The notes under the pieces are model-generated. The model had not been told where the DNA came from, ran no database searches, and saw only the letters and a list, made by a program, of their open reading frames with translations. From assembly GCF_013315695.1 (NCBI RefSeq), contig NZ_CP054353.1: a stretch of DNA of 64,000 nucleotides, one strand, 5' to 3'. The position numbers and the translations under genes were made by a program. Positions 5,977 through 25,044 of this stretch are shown here, one piece after another. Source of the DNA: Escherichia coli. Lineage in GTDB: Bacteria; Pseudomonadota; Gammaproteobacteria; Enterobacterales; Enterobacteriaceae. Position 1 is the first letter of the stretch. Every line of letters starts with the position of its first letter.

Positions 5977-6513
5977 ATGGCCAGCAGAGGCGTAAACAAG
6001 GTTATTCTCGTTGGTAATCTGGGTCAGGACCCGGAAGTACGCTACATGCCAAATGGTGGCGCAGTTGCCAACATTACGCTGGCTACTTCCGAATCCTGGC
6101 GTGACAAAGCGACCGGCGAGATGAAAGAGCAGACTGAATGGCACCGCGTTGTGCTGTTCGGCAAACTGGCAGAAGTAGCCAGCGAATATCTGCGTAAAGG
6201 TTCTCAGGTTTATATCGAAGGTCAGCTGCGTACCCGCAAATGGACCGATCAATCCGGTCAGGATCGCTACACCACAGAAGTCGTGGTGAACGTTGGCGGC
6301 ACCATGCAGATGCTGGGTGGTCGTCAGGGTGGTGGCGCTCCGGCAGGTGGCAATATCGGTGGTGGTCAGCCGCAGGGTGGTTGGGGTCAGCCTCAGCAGC
6401 CGCAGGGTGGCAATCAGTTCAGCGGCGGCGCGCAGTCTCGCCCGCAGCAGTCCGCTCCGGCAGCGCCGTCTAACGAGCCGCCGATGGACTTTGATGACGA
6501 TATTCCGTTCTAG
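5977..6513 (+). CDS. ssb: Single-stranded DNA-binding protein (178 aa)
   Basis: [32 protein letters not shown]... OB-fold N-terminus, Gly/Gln/Pro-rich linker, acidic tip DFDDDIPF. Confidence 0.97.
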
Positions 6514-6551
6514 AGTTAACTTGTGAGTTATTTGTAAAGAATCCATACGCA

Positions 6552-6580
6552 GGCCCCTGTTAATTCAGGGGTTTTTTGTT
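6552..6580 (+). terminator. Intrinsic terminator of ssb
   Basis: Hairpin caggcccctg-ttaattc-aggggttttttg. Confidence 0.7.
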
Positions 6581-6650
6581 TCTATCGTCGGAAAAAGTGT
6601 CTTGTATAAATTGGTGATTTTTCACATAAAGTGTACCTTGTAATTGTGTA

Positions 6651-7919
6651 ATGTTTATGGGGTGTGAGTGCATGGAAAAGAACTACAGAGTTACAACATT
6701 TGTCATGGATAGTGGCGAGCGCTATTGCATGGTAGTGGATCGTGCTTCTGGGCTTCCCATGTATTACCCCACTCTGTTTCTAACAACTCAAATCCGCAAT
6801 AGAGAGGATGCTTTTTCAACGATGTTGGCGGCGGCTAACAACCTGGTTATGTTGTTACGCTTTGTAGAGAGTCGCGACATTGACCTTGAGCAGCGGTTTT
6901 TGACCAAAGACTTCTTCAAGCCACATGAGCTGGATGATCTGCGAGATTTTGCTCAGTGCAAACAAAGAAAGGGGCCATTAACTGTGTCCTCTACCTCTTG
7001 GTTGGCCGATGCGATGACCGATATCGTTGATAACGGGACACAGCATTCCCGGCTAACAACGTTTGCCAACTATTTACACTGGTATGCGATGCATATCTTA
7101 AAGACGACAGAACTGGAAGTTGTCGAAAAGATCAATGCTATGGCGGCGCAGATAAAGACGCGCCGACCATCTAAAAAGCGCAGAAACCACGACTTACAAG
7201 ACAGGTCATTGAGTGATGTTCAATTGGACGCGCTATTTGAAGTCATCCAGCCTAGATCAGAGTTAAACCCTTTCTCAATAGATGTGCAGCGCCGCAATCG
7301 GCTGATGATCTTACTTCTGTTTTATCTTGGCATCCGAGGTGGTGAATTATTAAATATAAGAATACAGGACATAGATTTTAGCGCTAACAGGATCCGTATC
7401 GTTAGGAGAGCAGATGAACAAGCTGACTCTAGAACCAATGAGCCTAATGCTAAAACTAGAGAACGGCTCTTACCGTTGGCTGAATCCTTAGCTCAAGAAC
7501 TGCATAGTTATATCCTTCAAGATCGCCGGAAAGTCAGAAATGCGAAGAAAAATGACTATCTGTTTGTAACTTACAAGAGTGGACCAACTCTGGGAAATCC
7601 TATCTCCAAAGGGGGATATCATAAAATTTTTTCCGTAGTCAGGTCTATATCACCGCAATTGTATGCAGCGACAGGACATTCGCTCCGCCACACTTGGAAT
7701 CGCAAGTTTTCAGAAAGAATGGATGCCATGAATGAGCAAGTCAGCGAGGAACGCCAAGAGCAACTTCGTTCGTACTTAATGGGCTGGAGAGATGGCTCGG
7801 GAACCGCAGCGACTTACAACAAGCGTTTCATTCGGCAAAAAGGTTTTGAGGCCGCCTTGGCATTACAAGCAGGTAACGGCACTAGCTTGCCAGAGGACTT
7901 CAAGGATGACCATGAATAA
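6651..7919 (+). CDS. Tyrosine recombinase 1 of trio (integrase family, 422 aa; start may be the internal Met at 6672)
   Basis: Catalytic signature seen in translation: ...GIRGGELLNI... (Arg), HSLRHTW (His-x-x-Arg), LMGWRDGSGTAATYNKRF (Tyr nucleophile). Confidence 0.8.
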   Translation: MFMGCECMEKNYRVTTFVMDSGERYCMVVDRASGLPMYYPTLFLTTQIRNREDAFSTMLAAANNLVMLLRFVESRDIDLEQRFLTKDFFKPHELDDLRDFAQCKQRKGPLTVSSTSWLADAMTDIVDNGTQHSRLTTFANYLHWYAMHILKTTELEVVEKINAMAAQIKTRRPSKKRRNHDLQDRSLSDVQLDALFEVIQPRSELNPFSIDVQRRNRLMILLLFYLGIRGGELLNIRIQDIDFSANRIRIVRRADEQADSRTNEPNAKTRERLLPLAESLAQELHSYILQDRRKVRNAKKNDYLFVTYKSGPTLGNPISKGGYHKIFSVVRSISPQLYAATGHSLRHTWNRKFSERMDAMNEQVSEERQEQLRSYLMGWRDGSGTAATYNKRFIRQKGFEAALALQAGNGTSLPEDFKDDHE

Positions 7920-9444
7920 CCTCTTACTTGGGTTAGTACCAGAACGAATCCGTGCCAGGGCCAATGGCTACTCTTTTCTGTTGTATGACACATCGTGGAC
8001 ATTGGATAGAAATATCACTATTAATCTTGCTGATATTCACCATTACTTGTCAGATGGGACGCTAGATGGCTGCCTGCGTACACTGGCGTTTTATGCATCC
8101 AATCGTTCTTCTTCTCATACAAAAAATATTCTTGAACGGTTTCAGCACATGCTGCGTGAGACTGACGCGAGAGAAATTACTGATACGGTATTGATTAATT
8201 ATCGGTCGATGCTGTCGCCTGCAACAGAATGGTATCTAGCAACCATCCGTGGCTTTCTTCGATCCTGGCACGAACTGGGCTATCCCGGCATCAGTAAGGA
8301 GGTGAACCGCTTGCTAGATGGCTGGACGCTAAAGGGTAATCGTAAGGGGGATGCGGTTAAGCGCATGGATCCTCAAGAGGGGCCACTGACGGATAATGAG
8401 CTGACAGCGTTTAACGAGGGGGCTGTTCGGGCTTATGAAAAGAGCTTAATTACTATAGCTGAGTTGGCTATAGCACTTGGCACCAGTCATACAGGACGTC
8501 GTCCCATTCAGATCTCGCTGCTTCGTGTGGTCGATGTCCTTTGTGGTAAAAATGGAAAGGGAGAGCCCTTCTATGTGTTGAATGTGCCGCGAGCCAAGCA
8601 GCGCAGCAGCTCTTTCCGAATAAACTTCAAACCATTTGCAATATCACTGGAACTATGGGCAATCCTGAGTGCTCAGGCAAGAAATGCGATTGCGCAGGTT
8701 GAAAATCGTTTGGGGTTTGAATTGCAGGAAGATGACCGGCAGCAAATCCCTCTTTTTCCTGATCTTGATGTGTTAGATGCCGTCCAATCTCCTTATGAAT
8801 TCCGCCAACTGCATGCTACCGACAAACTCCACATTCCCGCCGCAGAGATAACCGACACCCTCCAATACATCGTAGAAAAGTCCGACATCCGGTCGGAACG
8901 TACCGGTGAGCTATTACATATCAATGCTCGTCGTTTTCGTTATACCACAGGCACACGAGCTGCCCGGGAAGGCTTTGGCGAGCTGGTGATTGCGGAACTG
9001 CTTGACCACGCGGACACCCAAAACGCAGGCGTTTACATCAAGAATATCCCCGAGCATGTGAAAAAGCTTGATGAGGCGGTTGGCTTCCAATTAGCACCAT
9101 ACGCTCAGGCCTTTGTCGGGGCACTTGTCGATTCAGAGAGAGACGCGCATCGAGGTAACGACCCTACCAGTCGTATTCGGACCGAAATGGGTCAGGGTGT
9201 TGGTACTTGTGGAGAACATGGCTTTTGTGGTGCCAATGTTCCTATTCCTTGCTACACCTGCATGCATTTCCAGCCTTGGCTGGACGGCCCACATGAAGAT
9301 GTCTATCAAGGACTGCTCAACGAACGTGAACGGGTGAAAGAGATAACTGGCGACATCCAGATTGCTGCCGTACTTGATCGCAGTATTATCGCGCTGGCAG
9401 ATGTGATCATGCGTTGTGCAAAACGTCGTGAAGAGCTTAGTTAA
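7906..9444 (+). CDS. Tyrosine recombinase 2 of trio (about 513 aa)
   Basis: C-terminal region with RRFRYTTGTRAAREG and LLDHADTQNAGVYI (R/H...Y pattern); ATG at 7906 or 7912 overlaps the upstream stop at 7917-7919. The ORF-track start at 7792 is rejected as an overlap artefact. Confidence 0.75.
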   Translation: MTMNNLLLGLVPERIRARANGYSFLLYDTSWTLDRNITINLADIHHYLSDGTLDGCLRTLAFYASNRSSSHTKNILERFQHMLRETDAREITDTVLINYRSMLSPATEWYLATIRGFLRSWHELGYPGISKEVNRLLDGWTLKGNRKGDAVKRMDPQEGPLTDNELTAFNEGAVRAYEKSLITIAELAIALGTSHTGRRPIQISLLRVVDVLCGKNGKGEPFYVLNVPRAKQRSSSFRINFKPFAISLELWAILSAQARNAIAQVENRLGFELQEDDRQQIPLFPDLDVLDAVQSPYEFRQLHATDKLHIPAAEITDTLQYIVEKSDIRSERTGELLHINARRFRYTTGTRAAREGFGELVIAELLDHADTQNAGVYIKNIPEHVKKLDEAVGFQLAPYAQAFVGALVDSERDAHRGNDPTSRIRTEMGQGVGTCGEHGFCGANVPIPCYTCMHFQPWLDGPHEDVYQGLLNERERVKEITGDIQIAAVLDRSIIALADVIMRCAKRREELS

Positions 9445-9460
9445 CAGGGAGCAATAACCA

Positions 9461-11494
9461 ATGGCTGAGATTTTCCTGTTTAAGCCAAAGGCTACGCTGA
9501 CAGCAGCAGAAAACCTTGAAGCATTCATATCCCAGTGCCGAGATCAATTGACTGTATTCGGCTCTGATCTCACTTGGGAAGATCCTGTTTGGCCAAACAT
9601 AACTGTATTTGCCAAGTTGGGCATTATTACGAGAAAACCCATACTGGAAGAGACGCAAGACCCTGCTTTCATTGATTTTGCCAAAGCCTATTTCCGTTAC
9701 CAGCAGGGGCATAGCCTCTCTAGGGCAAAGAATGAAAGTAAAGCCCTCCGTGCGGTTGAGGCGGCTTTGCTTCAAGTAAATGGAAACGCAAATATTGATG
9801 GCCTGTCGATTTCTGTGCTGGATGAAGCAGCTGAATTGGCAAAGCATTACTACTCCGATGGCTCCGCATATCATTGTGGCCGTGAGATTGAGCGGCTGGC
9901 TAAGTTTGTAGCTGAAAACCAGCTTGTATCAAGTGCTGTACAAAATTGGGTCAATCCAATTAAACGTGCAGAGGATAAGAACAAAACGAGCAGAAAGGCG
10001 AAGAAAAATAGGGAAGATAAACTTCCGAGTGATATTGCTCTTAATGCGTTGGCGGAAATTTTTGCCAACGACCCAATTCATGAGCGAGACATATTTACAA
10101 CATCGGTTTTTGCCATGTTGATGTCGGCACCTTCACGTATTACTGAGGTGTTAGCACTGCCTGTGGATTGCGAGGTTTTTGAAACGGATCGTGAAGGGAT
10201 AGAACGATATGGTTGGCGTTTTTTTGCGGGGAAAGGCTATGAGGGTGATATCAAATGGATACCCACCGTGATGGTCGGTATAGCTAAGACAGCCGTAGCT
10301 AGAGCTAGAGTGCTCTCTGAAAATGCACGACAACTGGCCAAGTGGATCGAGAAACACCCGAATAAGTTTTACCGCCATGCTAACTGTCCCAGTGTAGCCG
10401 ATGATGAGCCATTGACGATGAAGCAGGTTTGTATGGCGCTCGGTTTTGCACATTACTCTAAAAAGACGTGCAGGTCGTGTCTTGGTAATCGAGGTTTAGC
10501 TAAAGAGGATGGTGTACATACTCTAAATAGCCTGTGGCAGCACACAATGGCGCGTTTACCGGATGGCTTTCCGTGGTTTGATAAAGACAAGGGAATTAGG
10601 TACAGCAATGCCTTGTTTGTACTGAACGTAAATCAGTTCCACGGGAACAGAGGATGCATACCAGTTGAGTTACATAAGCCAACCAATAATTTCTTCAACA
10701 GTGATCTGACGCCTCGTCTGTCCTTGAAAGGAAAACATGCCAGTATCTTTGATCGCCATGGTTACCATGCTGTAAACGGAGAGCCGGTGAAATTAACCTC
10801 ACATCAGGCTCGACACCTGCTCAACACCATTATCCAGCGCGGTGGCCTGTCAAACTTGGAAATTGCCAAGTGGTCGGGGCGGGCAGATGTGAAACAGAAT
10901 CGAACTTACAACCACATGACTGAATACGAACTGGTTGGCATTGCTGAACGCCTTGATCCCACAACAGCGCTATTTGGGCCTGCTGGCGAGGTGGCAAAGC
11001 ATCTGCCCGTGACTATGCAGGAGTTCAATACCTTAGAGCATGCCGCAGTCCATGTGACGGAGTATGGCTACTGTGTGCATGATTACACCATGAGTCCTTG
11101 TGAGAAATTCCGAGATTGCGTCAATTGTACCGAACAGGTTTGCATCAAAGGCGATGATGCTGAAAAGTTGGATCGCATTAAGATACGTCTGGAGAAATTA
11201 GAGCGACTGTTTTTTCTTGCTGACGCAGCAGTGGAAAGTGGTGAGATAGGAACTGATCGCTGGTATCAGTACCACAAGAAAACTGTTACCCGGCTTCGTG
11301 AACTAGTGGCTATTTTAGAGAATCCAGACATTGAAAATGGTGTCCAGATTAAGCTCCGGGGCAATGATTTCAGCCAGCTTCGCCGTGTTGTCGCAAAGAC
11401 GTCTATTGTGGCCATCGAGCAAAAAGGCAAAGAAAGTGAAGAAGCTGTGATGTTAGATGATTTGACAACTTTGTTAGGAGGTGGCCTTGGCTAA
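9461..11494 (+). CDS. Tyrosine recombinase 3 of trio (677 aa)
   Basis: LTSHQARHLLNT (H-x-x-R-H) and WSGRADVKQNRTYNHM (Tyr) motifs; RBS-like cagggag 8 nt upstream of ATG. Confidence 0.75.
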   Translation: MAEIFLFKPKATLTAAENLEAFISQCRDQLTVFGSDLTWEDPVWPNITVFAKLGIITRKPILEETQDPAFIDFAKAYFRYQQGHSLSRAKNESKALRAVEAALLQVNGNANIDGLSISVLDEAAELAKHYYSDGSAYHCGREIERLAKFVAENQLVSSAVQNWVNPIKRAEDKNKTSRKAKKNREDKLPSDIALNALAEIFANDPIHERDIFTTSVFAMLMSAPSRITEVLALPVDCEVFETDREGIERYGWRFFAGKGYEGDIKWIPTVMVGIAKTAVARARVLSENARQLAKWIEKHPNKFYRHANCPSVADDEPLTMKQVCMALGFAHYSKKTCRSCLGNRGLAKEDGVHTLNSLWQHTMARLPDGFPWFDKDKGIRYSNALFVLNVNQFHGNRGCIPVELHKPTNNFFNSDLTPRLSLKGKHASIFDRHGYHAVNGEPVKLTSHQARHLLNTIIQRGGLSNLEIAKWSGRADVKQNRTYNHMTEYELVGIAERLDPTTALFGPAGEVAKHLPVTMQEFNTLEHAAVHVTEYGYCVHDYTMSPCEKFRDCVNCTEQVCIKGDDAEKLDRIKIRLEKLERLFFLADAAVESGEIGTDRWYQYHKKTVTRLRELVAILENPDIENGVQIKLRGNDFSQLRRVVAKTSIVAIEQKGKESEEAVMLDDLTTLLGGGLG

Positions 11495-11906
11495 GCATCT
11501 GGACAATAGAGACATTAACGCCATCGTAAATCTAATTCGAGGATGGAAGGAACCAAAACTGTCCTGGTCAGCAATTTGTGAGGCGGCAGAACCATTGGTC
11601 GGAAAGTTGCCGTCAAGACAGTCCCTTAATGCACATGAGGCAATAGTGACTGCCTATCAAACAAAGAAAGAGGCGCTTAAAGGCCGTGGCCCCAAAAATC
11701 CGCGTCCAGCTAGTTTGAACATTGCAGCCGCGAGGATTGTGAATCTTGAAAGCGAAATCGAAGAGCTTAAGGAAGAGAACCGGAGGTACAAACAACAGTT
11801 TGTGATCTGGCAATACAATGCATACAAATATGGAATGACAGAACATCAACTTAATGCGCAGCTGACAAAGATTGACCGTGAGCGCTCTGATGGAGAAAGA
11901 AGATAG
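11481..11906 (+). CDS. Small protein (about 140 aa) coupled to recombinase 3; possible ginD-like accessory factor
   Basis: ORF overlaps the 3' end of recombinase 3 (GTG 11481 or TTG 11487 just after aggagg); C-terminal half has coiled-coil character (LESEIEELKEENRRYKQQ). Function not recognisable. Confidence 0.5.
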   Translation: MALAKHLDNRDINAIVNLIRGWKEPKLSWSAICEAAEPLVGKLPSRQSLNAHEAIVTAYQTKKEALKGRGPKNPRPASLNIAAARIVNLESEIEELKEENRRYKQQFVIWQYNAYKYGMTEHQLNAQLTKIDRERSDGERR

Positions 11907-11981
11907 TTGCTGAGTACGATATCGAGGGTACATTTCTCTGTGTAGGGGTAGTTATTTACAAAAAAATAGGAGAATAATTAA

Positions 11982-14900
11982 ATGGTCAAACCAAACTGGG
12001 ATAACTTTAAAGCTAAATTTAGTGAGAATCCTCAAGGTAATTTTGAGTGGTTTTGCTACTTGTTGTTCTGTCAAGAATTCAAAATGCCCGCAGGTATATT
12101 TAGATATAAGAATCAATCTGGTATCGAAACTAATCCAATAACCAAAGATAATGAAATTATCGGTTGGCAATCTAAATTCTATGACACAAAATTGTCGGAT
12201 AACAAAGCTGATCTTATAGAAATGATTGAGAAAAGCAAAAAGGCTTATCCAGGATTAAGTAAAATCATTTTCTATACTAATCAAGAGTGGGGGCAGGGGA
12301 GAAAGTCCCATGAACCTGAAGGCGATAAGAACGCTGATAATTATTTGGAAACTGTCGGAAATAGTAACGATCCCAAAATAAAAATTGAAGTTGATCAGAA
12401 AGCATATGAGTCGGGTATCGAAATAGTATGGAGAGTTGCTAGTTTTTTTGAATCACCGTTTGTAATAGTTGAGAATGAAAAGATTGCTAAACATTTCTTC
12501 TCCCTTAATGAAAGCATCTTTGATTTATTAGAAGAAAAGCGCAAGCACACAGAAAATGTTTTATATGAAATTCAAACCAATATAGAGTTCAAAGACAGAA
12601 GTATTGAAATTGACAGACGACATTGTATAGAACTTCTACATGAGAATCTAGTTCAGAAAAAAATTGTCATCGTCAGCGGAGAAGGTGGGGTTGGAAAAAC
12701 AGCAGTTATCAAAAAAATTTATGAAGCAGAAAAACAATACACTCCTTTCTATGTCTTTAAGGCTAGCGAGTTTAAAAAGGACAGTATTAATGAGCTATTC
12801 GGTGCGCATGGCTTAGACGATTTCTCTAATGCTCATCAAGACGAATTACGTAAAGTCATAGTCGTAGATTCTGCTGAAAAGCTTTTAGAACTGACCAATA
12901 TCGATCCTTTTAAAGAATTCCTGACTGTTTTAATAAAGGATAAATGGCAGGTTGTTTTCACAACCCGTAACAACTACTTGGCAGATCTGAACTATGCTTT
13001 CATAGATATTTATAATATAACTCCTGGAAACTTAGTAATAAAGAACCTTGAACGCGGCGAGCTAATAGAGTTATCTGATAACAATGGATTTAGCCTTCCT
13101 CAAGATGTTCGATTATTAGAACTAATCAAAAATCCATTTTATCTAAGTGAATATTTGAGGTTCTATACCGGTGAAAGCATCGATTATGTGAGCTTCAAAG
13201 AAAAGCTTTGGAATAAGATTATTGTCAAAAATAAACCTTCTCGGGAGCAGTGTTTCTTAGCGACTGCTTTTCAGCGGGCTAGTGAGGGCCAATTTTTTGT
13301 CTCCCCGGCATGTGATACTGGAATTTTAGATGAGTTAGTTAAAGACGGAATTGTCGGCTATGAAGCTGCTGGTTACTTCATTACACATGATATATACGAG
13401 GAATGGGCATTAGAAAAGAAAATTTCTGTCGATTATATCCGTAAAGCGAACAATAACGAGTTCTTCGAAAAAATAGGAGAATCACTTCCTGTTCGCCGTA
13501 GTTTTCGGAATTGGATATCTGAACGATTGCTTTTAGATGACCAGTCCATAAAGCCTTTTATCGCAGAAATAGTCTGTGGAGAAGGAATATCAAATTTTTG
13601 GAAAGACGAGTTATGGGTAGCTGTCCTTCTTTCCGATAATTCAAGCATATTTTTTAATTACTTTAAAAGATATTTACTTAGTAGTGACCAGAATCTATTA
13701 AAAAGACTTACTTTCTTATTGAGGCTTGCTTGCAAGGACGTTGATTACGATCTGCTTAAACAGTTAGGTGTAAGTAATTCAGATCTGCTTTCCATTAAAT
13801 ATGTTCTTACTAAGCCTAAGGGAACTGGTTGGCAGAGTGTGATCCAATTTATCTATGAAAATTTAGATGAAATAGGGATCAGAAATATTAATTTTATACT
13901 TCCTGTGATTCAGGAGTGGAATCAAAGAAACAAAGTGGGTGAAACGACTCGATTATCTAGTTTGATAGCCCTAAAATATTATCAATGGACTGTAGATGAG
14001 GATGTCTATTTATCCGGAAGGGATAATGAGAAAAATATTCTGCATACGATTCTTCATGGGGCGGCCATGATTAAACCTGAAATGGAAGAGGTTTTAGTTA
14101 AGGTTCTTAAAAATAGGTGGAACGAGCACGGTACCCCATATTTCGACCTTATGACCTTAATCCTTACTGACTTAGATTCATATCCGGTTTGGGCATCTCT
14201 CCCGGAATATGTTCTACAATTGGCAGATCTGTTCTGGTATCGGCCACTTAAAGAAACAGGCGAACGTTATCACAGTATGGATATTGAAGATGAGTTCGGT
14301 CTATTTAGGTCTCATCACGACTATTATCCAGAAAGTCCATATCAGACTCCTATATATTGGTTACTACAATCACAGTTCAAAAAAACAATAGACTTTATTC
14401 TTGATTTTACGAACAAGACAACGATATGTTTTGCCCACTCCCATTTTGCTAAAAACGAAATTGAAGAAGTCGATGTCTTTATTGAAGAAGGAAAGTTTAT
14501 AAAGCAATATATATGCAATCGTCTGTGGTGCTCATATCGAGGAACACAGGTCTCTACCTACTTACTTTCATCAATTCATATGGCATTGGAAAAATTTTTT
14601 CTTGAGAATTTTAAAAATGCAGACTCGAAAGTGTTGGAAAGTTGGCTTCTTTTCTTGTTAAGAAATACCAAGTCAGCTTCTATTTCTGCAGTAGTTACGA
14701 GTATTGTACTTGCATTCCCTGAGAAGACATTCAATGTAGCTAAAGTACTATTCCAAACAAAGGATTTCTTCCGTTTTGATATGAATCGAATGGTTCTAGA
14801 CAGAACACATAAAAGTTCATTAATCTCCCTCAGGGATGGCTTTGGCGGTACAGATTACAGAAACTCTTTGCACGAAGAAGATAGAATTAAAGCTTGCGAT

Positions 14901-16745
14901 GATGTGCATAGAAATACTTATCTTGAAAATCTTGCCTTGCATTATCAAATTTTCAGGAGTGAAAATGTAACGGAGAAAGATGTCATTGAAAGGCAACAAG
15001 TGCTCTGGGGTATTTTCGATAAATACTATAATCAGCTTCCAGATGAAGCTCAAGAAACTGAAGCCGATAAGACGTGGAGGCTCTGCTTGGCAAGAATGGA
15101 TCGGCGAAAGATGAAAATAACTACCAAGGAGAAAGATGAAGGGATTGAGATATCATTCAATCCTGAGATTGACCCTAAACTAAAGCAATATAGTGAGGAA
15201 GCAATAAAGAAAAACTCCGAGCATATGAAGTATGTAACGCTGAAACTATGGGCAAGCTATAAAAGAGAAAAGGATGAACGTTATAAGAATTATGGAATGT
15301 ATGAGGACAATCCGCAAATTGCTTTACAAGAGACCAAAGAAATAATAAAAAAGCTTAATGAGGAAGGGGGTGAAGATTTCAGACTATTAAATGGTAATAT
15401 ACCAGCAGACGTTTGTTCTGTATTACTGTTAGATTACTTTAATCAGTTGAATAATGAAGAGAGAGAATATTGTAAAGATATTGTTCTAGCATATTCTCAA
15501 CTTCCGTTGAAGGAAGGCTATAATTATCAGGTACAAGATGGGACAACCTCGGCAATTTCAGCCTTACCCGTGATTTATCATAATTATCCAATGGAAAGGG
15601 AGACTATAAAAACAATATTACTTTTGACACTGTTTAATGACCACTCTATTGGAATGGCAGGTGGGCGCTACTCAGTATTTCCTAGTATGGTGATTCATAA
15701 ATTATGGCTAGACTATTTTGATGATATGCAGTCTCTATTGTTTGGTTTTTTGATTTTAAAGCCAAAGTATGTAATTCTTTCAAGAAAAATCATTCATGAA
15801 AGTTATCGTCAAGTAGACTATGACATTAAAAAAATAAATATTAATAAGGTGTTTTTAAATAACTATAAGCATTGCATATCAAATGTCATCGATAATAAAA
15901 TATCTATAGATGATTTGGGAAGTATAGATATAGTTGATCTACATATTTTGAACACAGCTTTCCAATTAATTCCAGTTGATACTGTTAATATTGAACATAA
16001 GCAATTGGTTTCCTTAATTGTTAAAAGATTTTCTACAAGCCTATTGTCAAGTGTTCGAGAAGATAGAGTTGATTACGCTCTTCGGCAGTCTTTCTTGGAA
16101 AGATTTGCCTACTTTACGCTTCATGCGCCCGTGAGCGATATTCCCGATTATATAAAACCTTTTCTTGATGGTTTCAACGGTTCAGAGCCTATTTCAGAGT
16201 TATTTAAAAAATTTATTCTCGTCGAAGATAGATTAAATACTTACGCCAAATTTTGGAAGGTTTGGGATTTGTTTTTTGATAAAGTGGTTACTTTGTGCAA
16301 GGATGGAGATAGGTATTGGTATGTAGATAAAATTATAAAAAGTTACCTTTTTGCTGAATCTCCATGGAAAGAAAACTCTAATGGTTGGCACACATTTAAA
16401 GATAGCAATAGTCAATTCTTTTGCGATGTATCTAGGACTATGGGCCATTGCCCTTCAACTTTATATTCTCTTGCCAAATCTTTGAATAACATTGCCAGTT
16501 GCTATCTTAATCAAGGTATAACCTGGCTTTCAGAAATGTTGTCGGTTAATAAAAAGCTATGGGAAAAGAAATTGGAAAATGATACTGTTTATTTTTTAGA
16601 ATGTTTGGTTAGGCGGTATATTAACACTGAGCGTGAGCGAATTAGACGAACCAAACAGTTGAAAGAAGAGGTCTTAGTAATATTGGATTTTTTGGTAGAG
16701 AAAGGATCTGTTGTTGGTTATATGTCACGGGAAAATATTCTGTGA
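11982..16745 (+). CDS. Large STAND-type P-loop NTPase (1587 aa): N-terminal unknown domain (about 1-220), NTPase core (about 225-330), about 1250-aa helical C-terminal region; candidate anti-phage (Avs-like) protein
   Basis: Strong RBS (aggag, 9-nt spacer). Walker A GEGGVGKT (aa 233-240), Walker B VIVVDSAE (aa 292-299), TTR motif in QVVFTTRN (aa 323-330) typical of STAND NTPases. Very AT-rich codon usage; no transmembrane or secretion signals noticed. Confidence 0.8.
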   Translation: MVKPNWDNFKAKFSENPQGNFEWFCYLLFCQEFKMPAGIFRYKNQSGIETNPITKDNEIIGWQSKFYDTKLSDNKADLIEMIEKSKKAYPGLSKIIFYTNQEWGQGRKSHEPEGDKNADNYLETVGNSNDPKIKIEVDQKAYESGIEIVWRVASFFESPFVIVENEKIAKHFFSLNESIFDLLEEKRKHTENVLYEIQTNIEFKDRSIEIDRRHCIELLHENLVQKKIVIVSGEGGVGKTAVIKKIYEAEKQYTPFYVFKASEFKKDSINELFGAHGLDDFSNAHQDELRKVIVVDSAEKLLELTNIDPFKEFLTVLIKDKWQVVFTTRNNYLADLNYAFIDIYNITPGNLVIKNLERGELIELSDNNGFSLPQDVRLLELIKNPFYLSEYLRFYTGESIDYVSFKEKLWNKIIVKNKPSREQCFLATAFQRASEGQFFVSPACDTGILDELVKDGIVGYEAAGYFITHDIYEEWALEKKISVDYIRKANNNEFFEKIGESLPVRRSFRNWISERLLLDDQSIKPFIAEIVCGEGISNFWKDELWVAVLLSDNSSIFFNYFKRYLLSSDQNLLKRLTFLLRLACKDVDYDLLKQLGVSNSDLLSIKYVLTKPKGTGWQSVIQFIYENLDEIGIRNINFILPVIQEWNQRNKVGETTRLSSLIALKYYQWTVDEDVYLSGRDNEKNILHTILHGAAMIKPEMEEVLVKVLKNRWNEHGTPYFDLMTLILTDLDSYPVWASLPEYVLQLADLFWYRPLKETGERYHSMDIEDEFGLFRSHHDYYPESPYQTPIYWLLQSQFKKTIDFILDFTNKTTICFAHSHFAKNEIEEVDVFIEEGKFIKQYICNRLWCSYRGTQVSTYLLSSIHMALEKFFLENFKNADSKVLESWLLFLLRNTKSASISAVVTSIVLAFPEKTFNVAKVLFQTKDFFRFDMNRMVLDRTHKSSLISLRDGFGGTDYRNSLHEEDRIKACDDVHRNTYLENLALHYQIFRSENVTEKDVIERQQVLWGIFDKYYNQLPDEAQETEADKTWRLCLARMDRRKMKITTKEKDEGIEISFNPEIDPKLKQYSEEAIKKNSEHMKYVTLKLWASYKREKDERYKNYGMYEDNPQIALQETKEIIKKLNEEGGEDFRLLNGNIPADVCSVLLLDYFNQLNNEEREYCKDIVLAYSQLPLKEGYNYQVQDGTTSAISALPVIYHNYPMERETIKTILLLTLFNDHSIGMAGGRYSVFPSMVIHKLWLDYFDDMQSLLFGFLILKPKYVILSRKIIHESYRQVDYDIKKININKVFLNNYKHCISNVIDNKISIDDLGSIDIVDLHILNTAFQLIPVDTVNIEHKQLVSLIVKRFSTSLLSSVREDRVDYALRQSFLERFAYFTLHAPVSDIPDYIKPFLDGFNGSEPISELFKKFILVEDRLNTYAKFWKVWDLFFDKVVTLCKDGDRYWYVDKIIKSYLFAESPWKENSNGWHTFKDSNSQFFCDVSRTMGHCPSTLYSLAKSLNNIASCYLNQGITWLSEMLSVNKKLWEKKLENDTVYFLECLVRRYINTERERIRRTKQLKEEVLVILDFLVEKGSVVGYMSRENIL

Positions 16746-16790
16746 TGTAGTTGAAAATAATAATTTTAATGAGAGCTTTTCCAATTTAGG

Positions 16791-16815
16791 CTCCAGGGAT
16801 TGGAGCCTTTTTATT
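16791..16815 (+). terminator. Intrinsic terminator after the large NTPase gene
   Basis: Hairpin ggctccaggg-a-ttggagcc followed by tttttatt. Confidence 0.6.
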
Positions 16816-16840
16816 ATCGAAAAGATTAATATCTTATAAG

Positions 16841-17059
16841 TCAATCAGTAAAACGCAGCAAAGCTCGTTGCTCTTGAATGTTCACTCCGTGATAAATTCT
16901 TTGATTACCACATAAATAACAAGAACAAGCACAAGGGGTGCAGTAAATTTTCCCTACAACTTTTTCAGTTTTAGCCAACGCAATTCGATATGTTTTTCTC
17001 TTAGATTTTAACCGAGATATATGATGACGACGCCATGCCCGATTTCTAACCATTTCCAT
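16841..17059 (-). CDS. Small basic Cys-rich hypothetical protein (72 aa)
   Basis: ORF with GGAG-type RBS; Arg/Lys-rich N-terminus and a CTPCACSCYLCG cysteine cluster (possible zinc ribbon). No family recognised. Confidence 0.3.
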   Translation of the reverse strand: MEMVRNRAWRRHHISRLKSKRKTYRIALAKTEKVVGKIYCTPCACSCYLCGNQRIYHGVNIQEQRALLRFTD

Positions 17060-17283
17060 TCACTCCAATTTTCTACCGCGGTGTTATACCGCGCCCGTAT
17101 CAATCTTTGGAGTTCGATATCGATCTGACCTTTCATGAATACCTCGGAATTTATCAATAAAGTGAGTGCTATATCATAGCTTATGGGATGAAAGTTTGAT
17201 ATTTAGCACTTTTCAGCTTTAGGTAAAGCTGTCCTCAATAAAGCTAATTTCTTGTTTATTAATGGAATTTCTATGTGGAAGTG

Positions 17284-18105
17284 TTAGAAATCCTGTTTTA
17301 CTTTATCCATCGTTAAAACTTTACTTATTATATAAGGATCATAATTTCTTATACTCATAAGGCAATTTATCAAATTGGAAACGTGGCTATCATCAGGTAT
17401 AAGTATATATTTAATATCATCGAAAGAAAAACCAATGCCAAATTCAGAGAATTTTTTACTTAAGACGGCCTTCTGGTTAGGTTCCACCACTCGCTCTAAA
17501 TTTAGGCTAGGCCATAAATCGCCAACAAACGGATGCGGTACATATCTCCATTCTTTTTCGTCAGCGTAGATATAATTCTCAATGGTTTTTTCGTTCGTCC
17601 TTTCTAATTTCCCTTTATAATTTTTCATATAGCGTAATAAATTATAAAGGTCAGCGTACTCTTCTTTAAGGCTTTCAAAATACTTACGCTCTTTATTATC
17701 AAGGATATGCCTTTTCGACCATAGCGGAATTAACGCATCCTTTAGTTTTCTAATTCTTTTATTATACTTTGAAAATAATTCACTGCCTTGATTCATGTAT
17801 AGAACGGGATGGAGATCATTTTTCTCAGCCCATTCTTTTGTTAACCCAAATCCAAATTCACCATATTTTCCACTATGATCTTTAATCTGAGAAAGCTTGA
17901 TGTCACAGAATGAAACCATTGGTACTGCGAAATTTCTTCTTCCTTTTACTCCGACTATGCGTTCACGGGCAAGAAATGGTTTAAAATAGAGTTCTGTTAA
18001 AATGCTATAGAATGCCTCTTCATTTTTAGTAAAGTGAAACAACGTTGTTGGATGTAAACTATTAACTGCTTGTATAACTGTTTCTTGGTTTTCTATAGCA
18101 CTCAT
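17284..18105 (-). CDS. AbiGi-like abortive-infection family protein (273 aa)
   Basis: N-terminal LFHFTKNEEAFYSILTE... resembles, by recall, the FHFT-type N-terminus of AbiGi-family proteins; AT-rich; convergent with the NTPase gene. Confidence 0.55.
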   Translation of the reverse strand: MSAIENQETVIQAVNSLHPTTLFHFTKNEEAFYSILTELYFKPFLARERIVGVKGRRNFAVPMVSFCDIKLSQIKDHSGKYGEFGFGLTKEWAEKNDLHPVLYMNQGSELFSKYNKRIRKLKDALIPLWSKRHILDNKERKYFESLKEEYADLYNLLRYMKNYKGKLERTNEKTIENYIYADEKEWRYVPHPFVGDLWPSLNLERVVEPNQKAVLSKKFSEFGIGFSFDDIKYILIPDDSHVSNLINCLMSIRNYDPYIISKVLTMDKVKQDF

Positions 18106-18483
18106 ATATTAACTGTTCCATAGTGTAAAACCTGACTTAGCAAAGGTTATCATACTAGTCTTTGTACTGTAAGCACACTTGGTTTAATTCCACGCACTTT
18201 TTGAGATTTCCGGTTTTTTGATCTCTTACCAAAATCTATGCCAGATTGAATCAAAGGTCCGAGCTGGGTCACCAAAAAAAGTAAAATTATGCACTTTGAT
18301 AGATTATATTTTAACTAAATTCTTTACAGTTAAATCATTTCTTATGCCTTAGTTTCTGATAAAAAAGGTTTTTTTTCACGATTTATAAGTATCAGGTTAT
18401 GTGAACCGTTCTGATTTGTCGTTAAAACAATAGGTTATATTGTTTTAAGGTGGATGATTAAAGCATCTGCCAGCCATAAAAAA

Positions 18484-18506
18484 GAAGCCTCCGTTTTGGA
18501 GGCTTC
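18484..18506 (-). terminator. Terminator downstream of yjcB (backbone)
   Basis: Hairpin gaagcctccg-ttt-tggaggcttc with an A-run on the plus strand (U-run on the minus strand), immediately after the yjcB stop. Confidence 0.5.
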
Positions 18507-18512
18507 TACATA

Positions 18513-18794
18513 TCAAGTCAAAATCATTGGCCATTGTGGCGGTGTCTGATTCATCTCTTCTATCATCACCGACTCGATGTTGTGCCAGATGGCGGTGATA
18601 TCCGCCATTGTGATGCCAAGCAACCCCATTGCGAACCAGCAGGCAGAAACCACGCCCAGACCGCTGCTGATCACTGCAAGCCCGACATAATCAGACCGAC
18701 GAAAACGGATGTTGAGTGTGCTGGCCAGAAACATCATTACGGCACTAAGAAGTTGCCAGCGAAGAAGAACCACGCCAGTGGTGAGGGTAGCCAT
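18513..18794 (-). CDS. yjcB: Small inner-membrane protein YjcB (93 aa)
   Basis: Hydrophobic ORF MATLTTGVVLLRWQLL...; position after ssb as in K-12. The ORF track extends to 18893, but a 93-aa product starting at the internal Met is expected. Confidence 0.8.
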   Translation of the reverse strand: MATLTTGVVLLRWQLLSAVMMFLASTLNIRFRRSDYVGLAVISSGLGVVSACWFAMGLLGITMADITAIWHNIESVMIEEMNQTPPQWPMILT

Positions 18795-23618: not shown

Positions 23619-25044
23619 TAATGCCAGTCAGTTAAGCAACTGACTGGCTCTTTTTCGGGGCTGTGGGGTATTTCCAGGGCCTCTCCTTTACCACTCTCGG
23701 GAAGGCCCTTTCCCTTCTTGTCGGTAATTTCACAAGTTGTCCCATACTTGCAAGATCGCGCATCAGCTCCGGTATACGTCCCGGTGAAGCGCCCTGCAAT
23801 GTCATCAGCATTCTCATCACCATTCCGCATGATTCTGAGAAACTCAGTTGATTCGGCCAGTAACCTTTCAGATGTTCCGCCATTTTAATCATCTGATATC
23901 TCACCAGATTATAAGCCAGTAAGACACCCCACAGCTCTTGCTCCACAAGCTCCGGTTTTTTACTTCTCAGCGTCAGCCTGCTCAGTTGCATCGTCTGTTT
24001 TATCTCCCTGTATCCCAGTTCGATTTCCCAGCGATGACTGTACAGATCCGCCATTTCTCCTCCGGGGAAGCGCATGGCGTCCGTCATCGACGTCAGCAGA
24101 TGGCAGACTTTTCCTTTGCGCGTCACGGTCAGCAGGCGGGCTGTCACTTCATTTCCCAGTCCCGGCCACTTTTTTCGTGCCTGCGGGCTGGTTTTCAGCT
24201 TCACCAGATGATCGCCTTTACCCAGTTTTCTGATCTCTTCATATTGCGCTCCCTTTCTGAGAGGTATCATCCAGTGGCGGTGTTCTCCCGCCAGGCTCCA
24301 GGCATTTAACAGTCCCAGTGAGTAATAACCTTTATCCATTAACGTCAGAGTGTTATCGCCGGTTTGTTCTATAAGTTGCTCAGCAAGCTCATTTTCGCTG
24401 TTCTTCATCGTGCCGAAGGCTGCAGCCGTCAGCAGATGGCTGGTCAGTTCCATCTGGCAGACCATTTTGACCTGCGGGTAGAGCGCCGGGTTCCCGGCAT
24501 GTGTCTGGCGGGGGAAGGCTGCATCGTTCTCTGGTGTATCCGGTGTGCGCCAGAACACACCATCGATGGCCAGCAGGGTCAGGCCGCACCAGTGCGGATG
24601 CGGCGTGGCGTTATGCCAGAGCTGCGCTGTTTTCGTGAACACGCGGCGGACAGCCTCACTTCCCAGGCGCTGGCGGGCCTGAATAACGGCACTGGGGGCA
24701 ACGAAGGGGCGATTGCCCGGCAGCATGATGTCCAGGCGATTCACAATCTGGTGAAGAGGTTCTTTACGCTCAAGCGCCATGCCAACAATACACCAGACCA
24801 TCATTTCGAGGGGAAGACGGCGCTTGCGTAGCGTTACAGTACCTGATTCGGCAAGGCAACGAGAGATGAGTTCGGGGTCGAGGTAATCCCCCAGAGAAGT
24901 CAGTGGGTTACGCAGAGAATCGTAACGGGATACCAGATCAAGAGCCTGTCCAATGTGCATAAAAAAATCCGGAAACAAGTGAGCGTTTCCGGATTCTTAC
25001 ACAGCCACTGGATCGGTCAACTGATCCTTAACTGATCGGCATTA
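23619..25044 (-). mobile_element. Insertion sequence IS4, complete (1426 bp)
   Basis: Terminal inverted repeats TAATGCCAGTCAGTTAAG (left) and CTTAACTGATCGGCATTA (right, 16/18 match); length 1426 bp equals canonical IS4; single transposase ORF. Confidence 0.9.
23632..24978 (-). CDS. insG: IS4 transposase (DDE family, 448-aa ORF)
   Basis: ORF fills the IS; translation recognised as IS4 transposase by recall. Confidence 0.88.

Follow-up and report, generated by a model that had tools for sequence, protein, structure and literature searches.

An AbiGi-family gene of Escherichia coli, situated in a 64,000-nucleotide stretch of DNA that was analysed as a whole (the window), appears to be a functional, solitary member of its family. 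We put a probability of roughly 60% on the reading that its product, with a predicted ADP-ribosyltransferase (ART) fold, is carried as a stand-alone cargo cassette beside EcAvs4 and acts alone as an abortive infection (Abi)-type effector. The gene and its Avs4 neighbour are already annotated in RefSeq, and the ssb-yjcB hotspot in which they lie has been published (PMC11728103). Added here are the solitary status of the AbiGi gene, the conflict of an ART/DarT-like fold with its "antitoxin" label, the borders of the cassette together with natural swap variants that show its independence from Avs4, and an unannotated, conserved backbone ORF, denoted orf72. The positions of the features are listed in Table 1.

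Table 1. Features of the island and of the AbiGi cassette, in window coordinates.
Feature	Position	Strand	Description
Whole island	6512..18405	.	11.9 kb, three-recombinase; compared with the empty K-12 site
Recombinase module	6651..11906	+	Two tyrosine recombinases, 677-aa protein, 141-aa ORF
avs4	11982..16745	+	AVAST type 4 STAND NTPase with N-terminal nuclease, 1587 aa; structurally solved EcAvs4
Terminator-like site	16788..16808	+	GC-rich hairpin, then T-run; after avs4, between the convergent genes
orf72	16841..17059	-	Unannotated 72-aa Cys-rich ORF between avs4 and the AbiGi gene
42-aa ORF (putative)	17008..17136	-	Overlaps the orf72 start in another frame; within the conserved backbone segment 16774-17159
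Swappable AbiGi cassette	17160..18388	.	CDS plus flanking DNA of its own on either side
AbiGi-family CDS	17284..18105	-	Intact, 273 aa, ATG to stop; RefSeq WP_001272932.1; predicted DarT-like ADP-ribosyltransferase fold
Upstream region of the AbiGi gene	18106..18405	-	Extends to the right end of the island; GC 31%

The 273-aa reading frame described in the earlier note is real, as confirmed by the ORF listing and the translation, and its assignment to the AbiGi family was borne out by profile searches. Pfam AbiGi (PF10899) matched residues 60–236 with an i-E-value of 1.4e-24, the PADLOC AbiGi model (PDLC02331) matched residues 19–273 of the 273 at 1.6e-44, and phrog_13416 matched at 3e-98; all 57 of the 57 aligned homologues match PF10899. 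With the NCBIfam equivalog for lactococcal AbiGI (NF042957), the protein scored 45.2 bits against a cutoff of 300, which makes it a member of the family and not an AbiGI orthologue. In tblastn, lactococcal AbiGI aligned with residues 15–273 at 26% identity. RefSeq names the protein "abortive infection system antitoxin AbiGi family protein", and the segment of the window from 16700 to 18500 is 100% identical to E. coli strain MSB1_4I. The string TTLFHFTKNEEAFYSILTELYF, which the earlier note had quoted as a hallmark of AbiGi proteins, corresponds to residues 20–41. As a hallmark it held only in part, because AbiGi proteins that are paired with AbiGii read LF[N/K]FM at this position; the His of the LFHFT motif is typical of the solitary AbiGi subfamily. 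Compared with an 89% identical allele in L044, a metagenome contig carrying a sister island, the gene has a dN/dS of 0.136 at a dS of 0.43 and is under purifying selection.

The family comprises 3782 clusters at 50% identity (E ≤ 0.001), and among the best 150 clusters listed nearly all members are single-domain proteins of about 250 aa. A few members are fusions (P0087, and also P0149, P0175 and P0234). In P0087 (411 aa), the Pfam HNH-endonuclease domains PF01844 and PF14279 precede the AbiGi region at residues 161–411, while P0175 (550 aa) has two stretches that match the AbiGi profile.

Upstream of the gene, the AT-rich character noted previously for 18106–18370 was reproduced (31.7% GC), but it is not special to that region: the gene itself has 33.1% GC and avs4 34.9%. 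The whole cargo is AT-rich (31–36% GC) relative to the window (50%), the recombinase module having 47% GC. The upstream region holds one sigma-70-like site, at 18314–18286 (TTAAAA-17-CATAAT); a promoter scan of the region showed no enrichment above shuffle expectation, and an Rfam scan of 16600–18550 returned no RNA family at E ≤ 1.

On plasmids of Lactococcus, Enterococcus and Bacillus, the AbiGi gene is followed after 1–3 nt by a gene for an AbiGii protein of about 400 aa. Neither tblastn with three AbiGii proteins nor an HMM made from them picked up an AbiGii at E ≤ 1, be it in the window or among 60 further loci retrieved, a count that leaves aside the three AbiGii-containing plasmid loci. 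No abiGii lies directly downstream of the E. coli gene in the same operon, and the canonical two-gene AbiG system is thus not present; the solitary gene falls outside the AbiG system definition used by defence-finding tools. The downstream spacer is only 538 bp long and holds orf72 and the 42-aa ORF. Two proteins encoded downstream of homologues elsewhere were considered as decayed partners and rejected for want of a tblastn match in the window: a 403-aa protein downstream of a 70% homologue on the phage-plasmid pEc2-51408, and an M48/Lit-like protease downstream of the P2-prophage homologue. Neither is AbiGii, and in Pfam they gave only weak HSDR_N matches. The homologues on Klebsiella phage-plasmids have no called gene immediately downstream.

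Lactococcal AbiG (AbiGi plus AbiGii; pCI750 and relatives, e.g., pLLUC320A) is the closest described relative by its AbiGi component, which is homologous at 26% identity (PF10899) and has the motifs PM..FCDI, YG and DExEWR in common with the E. coli protein. Both are found on mobile DNA, and the E. coli protein is presumed to have an abortive infection role as well. Unlike lactococcal AbiG, the E. coli gene is monocistronic and lacks AbiGii, and its product has LFHFT instead of LF[N/K]FM in β1. The DExEWR motif is common to paired Firmicute and solitary AbiGi proteins. In the three paired AbiGi proteins (L061–L063), Asn or Lys takes the place of the His that is nearly invariant in the solitary family, while Glu-x-Glu is common to both; as judged from these residues, catalytic competence may not be the same in paired and solitary AbiGi proteins. 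AbiG of Lactococcus acts on phage transcription, and a major tail protein triggers it (PMC13064643). AbiGi and AbiGii of Lactococcus are each non-toxic alone in E. coli (PMC3985639), and the toxin and antitoxin assignment of AbiG has never been demonstrated.

An AF2 model of the E. coli protein, built from the 57 homologues, was confident (pLDDT 91.3, pTM 0.85), and fold comparison placed it closest to the toxin DarT, which modifies DNA, and to other ADP-ribosyltransferases. According to the model, the protein has the ART core fold. A Foldseek search of AFDB50 yielded AbiGi proteins, many of which carry an automatic name (DUF4433, DarT or DUF2971). Among 115 diverse members, E48, F66, Y81, G82, W92, Y103, K161, E183, E185, R187 and D272 are invariant, and H24 (at least 90%), T26 and D68 are nearly so; R47 and S65 are conserved in a closer set of homologues. 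The β1 His of LFHFT, the Tyr and the E-x-E that precedes a β-strand would fit an ART active site of the H-Y-E or ExE type (see PMC11543638 and PMC8120803 for the motifs of each class). When the PDB was searched with profiles from the 57- and 115-sequence alignments, no match was obtained at E ≤ 10, and the ART assignment therefore rests on the fold comparison and on the literature. AbiGi has already been placed among the ART families, as "poorly studied" (PMC12522546), and a 2026 review noted no significant PDB match for lactococcal AbiGi (PMC13064643). The DarT-like model, the invariant Glu183-x-Glu185 and Tyr81 and the near-invariant His24 together render the "antitoxin" label of the solitary subfamily doubtful.

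Sequence identity to DarT (PDB 7OMV, 8BAQ and 7YK3) is only 10–13%, and the protein differs from DarT in having a long helical insertion (residues 110–157) and about 70 additional C-terminal residues. DarTG comes with an adjacent macrodomain or NADAR antitoxin, whereas the AbiGi gene has none: no gene for a DarG macrodomain or NADAR antitoxin was found among the ORFs of the island, which comprise the recombinases, the 141-aa ORF, avs4, AbiGi, and orf72 together with the 42-aa ORF that overlaps it.

The earlier note had taken AbiGi and its neighbour to be defence cargo delivered by a recombinase module, and comparison with the empty K-12 site upheld this. The insertion point lies in the last codons of ssb, where the island supplies ssb with a TAG stop instead of TGA, and the 7-bp sequence CCGTTCT is present at both junctions (6505–6511 and 18406–18412). 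The same island is found directly 3' of a plasmid ssb in an F-type leading region, and the element appears to target the 3' ends of ssb genes on chromosomes and plasmids. The site, between uvrA-ssb and yjcB-pdeC, is the defence island integration hotspot described as "hotspot 39" (PMC11728103). Mobility genes and defence cargo are found in the published islands and here; the published example carries Detocs and a dGTPase, and the island in the window carries Avs4 and the AbiGi cassette.

In the recombinase module, NCBIfam returned XerA/XerC-like matches and a match to NF041502 at 677 bits. The 677-aa protein (9461–11494, plus strand) is a "hypothetical protein" in one RefSeq record and an "integrase" in another, and the 141-aa ORF (11481–11906, plus strand) has 139 aa according to RefSeq. 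Neither had an NCBIfam or PADLOC match, and weak PHROG matches were obtained for the 677-aa protein only. An imperfect 19-nt inverted repeat (84% complementary) is located near the ends of the island, at 6524–6542 and 18319–18337; it could represent putative recombinase-binding sites or have arisen by chance. The last 17 nt of the island (18389–18405) are also conserved in a variant with different cargo.

The borders of the AbiGi cassette were defined by comparison with the L058 variant of the island, which is homologous to the window through 17159 and again from 18389. Between the homologous parts, L058 has about 3.1 kb encoding PDC-S28, a DinG-like helicase, on the opposite strand. In the window, AbiGi is the sole gene of the cassette, which spans some 1.2 kb and occupies the cargo slot at the right end of the island. 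Relative to L044, the recombinases and avs4 are 98–99% identical at the DNA level, and the identity falls to 73–95% exactly past the avs4 stop. Islands of Enterobacter keep orf72, with PDC-S06 and PDC-S15 as cargo and neither Avs4 nor AbiGi. PDC-S28 and PDC-S06, the latter a PrrC-like ATPase, are PADLOC single-gene candidates whose proteins are unrelated to AbiGi. They fill the equivalent cargo slots by orf72 in the sister islands, and this use of the slots implies that they follow the "one gene, one cassette" logic of AbiGi.

The translation of orf72 contains …GKIYCTPCACSCYLCGNQRI… and matched phrog_4499 (6e-16); searches of Pfam and NCBIfam returned nothing for it. The ORF is intact in the diverged L044 island, with a dN/dS of 0.20, and accompanies varying cargo in Pantoea, E. 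coli and Enterobacter: Avs4 with AbiGi, Avs4 with PDC-S28, and PDC-S06 with an IS. It thus seems to belong to the backbone of this family of islands, set between two cargo slots, and is perhaps a regulator or excision factor. A role as a conserved partner of AbiGi was discarded, since orf72 travels with the island backbone and not with AbiGi. The 42-aa ORF that overlaps its start is 71% identical in variant islands.

We compared the neighbours of 38 AbiGi-family loci from diverse phyla by all-against-all BLASTP. No neighbour family occurred at more than three of the 38 loci, and the check for co-occurring genes that the earlier note had called for thus brought out no conserved neighbour family. 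Defence genes of varied types are nonetheless frequent among the genes that flank the homologues. In Kaistella chaponensis (L022, 7619–13923), the AbiGi homologue sits between hsdR and hsdM-hsdS in a type I restriction-modification operon, a placement that resembles that of the anticodon nuclease PrrC. Another homologue adjoins the gene of a UvrD/GajB-like helicase, which is accompanied by a type III methyltransferase, and others adjoin HEC-05, AbiTii or TIR effector genes. Further homologues are located within a Lamassu-like island, in a P2-prophage hotspot with the M48/Lit-like protease, and on SSU5-like phage-plasmids.

The neighbour of AbiGi in the window is a STAND NTPase defence gene, as the earlier note had proposed, and was identified as Avs4 by NCBIfam NF041815 (2066 bits; cutoff 1500) and by PADLOC (2361 bits). 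PDB entry 8dgf_A (EcAvs4) matched it over residues 1–1587 at 3629 bits, and RefSeq names it "AVAST type 4 anti-phage nuclease Avs4". The convergent orientation of the two genes was likewise confirmed. EcAvs4 has been described as a portal-sensing Avs, which tetramerises and thereby activates its own N-terminal nuclease, which is consistent with its working as a self-contained sensor-nuclease. The hairpin between the two genes is fully conserved in L044.

Could AbiGi and Avs4 form one two-gene system, in which AbiGi modulates, backs up or is activated by Avs4, and selection keeps the pair? The suggestion that the two act together, left open in the earlier note, draws on their adjacency: avs4 is present in 358 of 5426 complete E. 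coli genomes, and the AbiGi-containing segment (at least 80% coverage) in 356 of those. Equal numbers of records were retrieved with the avs4 and AbiGi queries in matching identity bands (361 at ≥99% and 12 at 95–99%, 373 records in all). The two genes also occur together on F-type plasmids, and in Pantoea vagans with ssb and orf72 and without the recombinases; they are similarly low in GC, and Enterobacter cloacae has a 68% homologue of AbiGi 2 kb upstream of an Avs2 gene. The E. cloacae locus leaves a loose association with Avs genes some probability. However, the co-occurrence in E. coli is explained by the near-clonal spread of a single element, as 361 of the 373 records are at least 99% identical. 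In the draft E. coli genomes L058–L060, Avs4 (89% aa identity) and orf72 are kept while PDC-S28 occupies the place of AbiGi. Co-occurrence beyond one element lineage, the mark of an Avs4-associated accessory gene, was not seen among the 38 diverse loci: 37 lack an Avs4 or Avs2 relative, the exception being the Avs2 locus of E. cloacae. The two genes have also diverged discordantly, with protein identities of 97.4% for Avs4 and 89% for AbiGi in L044 against 95.5% and 97.4%, respectively, in Pantoea, and a recombination breakpoint coincides exactly with the stop of avs4. Furthermore, the genes are convergent, with the terminator-like hairpin and a backbone ORF between them, and EcAvs4 was solved as a homotetramer with its own nuclease effector. 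The swap variants, the Avs-free loci and the discordant divergence indicate that AbiGi and Avs4 are linked cargo and not a functional pair, and we regard a joint system as highly improbable, the least likely of the alternatives.

Slightly less improbable, but still quite unlikely, is that the gene encodes the orphan antitoxin of a type IV AbiGi/AbiGii pair, either as the remnant of a decayed operon or as protection against incoming AbiGii-type toxins. The Pfam and RefSeq names say antitoxin, in Firmicutes AbiGi leads a tightly spaced two-gene operon with AbiGii, and the homology to lactococcal AbiGI covers almost the whole protein (residues 15–273). Against this, neither AbiGii nor a remnant of it was found in the window or the 60 other loci, and the downstream spacer is occupied by another small ORF, which is conserved. 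AbiGi proteins of about 250 aa are generally solitary in thousands of clusters, a pattern that decay does not produce. Purifying selection, the DarT-like fold and invariant residues of an enzyme-like kind (E-x-E, Tyr and His) point to an effector enzyme. Moreover, the lactococcal toxin and antitoxin roles were never demonstrated, neither protein being toxic in E. coli (PMC3985639). The leading alternative, though an unlikely one, is that the ART fold serves the mobile element, for addiction or exclusion, as an anti-defence modifier in the manner of AcrIF11, a phage ART, or as a catalytically inert scaffold. The gene is invariably carried by mobile DNA (islands, F-type plasmids, SSU5-like phage-plasmids and a P2-like prophage), and ART folds are used in anti-defence too (PMC8120803). 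Yet two tblastn runs against 50,697 deposited phage genomes found no homologue, and a viral structure library contained no match at E ≤ 0.001. Chromosomal homologues are found within defence loci, e.g., between hsdR and hsdM or beside HEC-05, AbiTii or TIR genes, and the cargo slot is otherwise taken by the candidate single-gene defence systems PDC-S28 and PDC-S06. The founding member of the family is, in addition, a proven Abi system (PMC13064643).

By analogy with DarT, and with what has been reported of lactococcal AbiG as regards phage transcription and the tail-protein trigger, the most likely role of the E. coli protein would be that of a stand-alone, infection-triggered ADP-ribosylating Abi effector. 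Acting alone, the protein would be latent in uninfected cells until a phage product (a structural protein in the case of lactococcal AbiG) released its activity; nucleic acid, or a protein belonging to the expression machinery, would then be ADP-ribosylated in an NAD+-dependent reaction, and phage transcription or replication would stop. A mechanism of latency has to be assumed, because an unregulated ART without an antitoxin would be expected to be toxic. The helical insertion and the C-terminal extension are candidate autoinhibitory or sensor parts.

More tentatively, and at somewhat less than even odds, the 3782 clusters of solitary, LFHFT-type AbiGi proteins may constitute a widespread class of one-gene anti-phage ARTs that have neither AbiGii nor an antitoxin and restrain themselves until triggered by a phage protein. 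If single-gene ADP-ribosylating Abi is the function, a large and misnamed family would gain one, the repertoire of ART-based immunity would extend beyond DarTG, and thousands of database entries would bear a wrong "antitoxin" annotation. As a convenient model in a tractable host, there would then be the E. coli copy beside EcAvs4.

Outside the island, the window contains an IS4-family transposase gene (23632–24978, minus strand), unrelated to AbiGi, which is a RefSeq pseudogene with an internal stop in the identical strain. On the metagenome contigs L043 and L044, the sister island continues past AbiGi, on the near side of yjcB, with IS fragments and with genes for a 611-aa Peptidase_C14 (caspase-like)-WD40 protein and a weakly putAbiC-like protein. 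The avs4 gene of L043 is broken into two ORFs, of 1072 and 510 aa.
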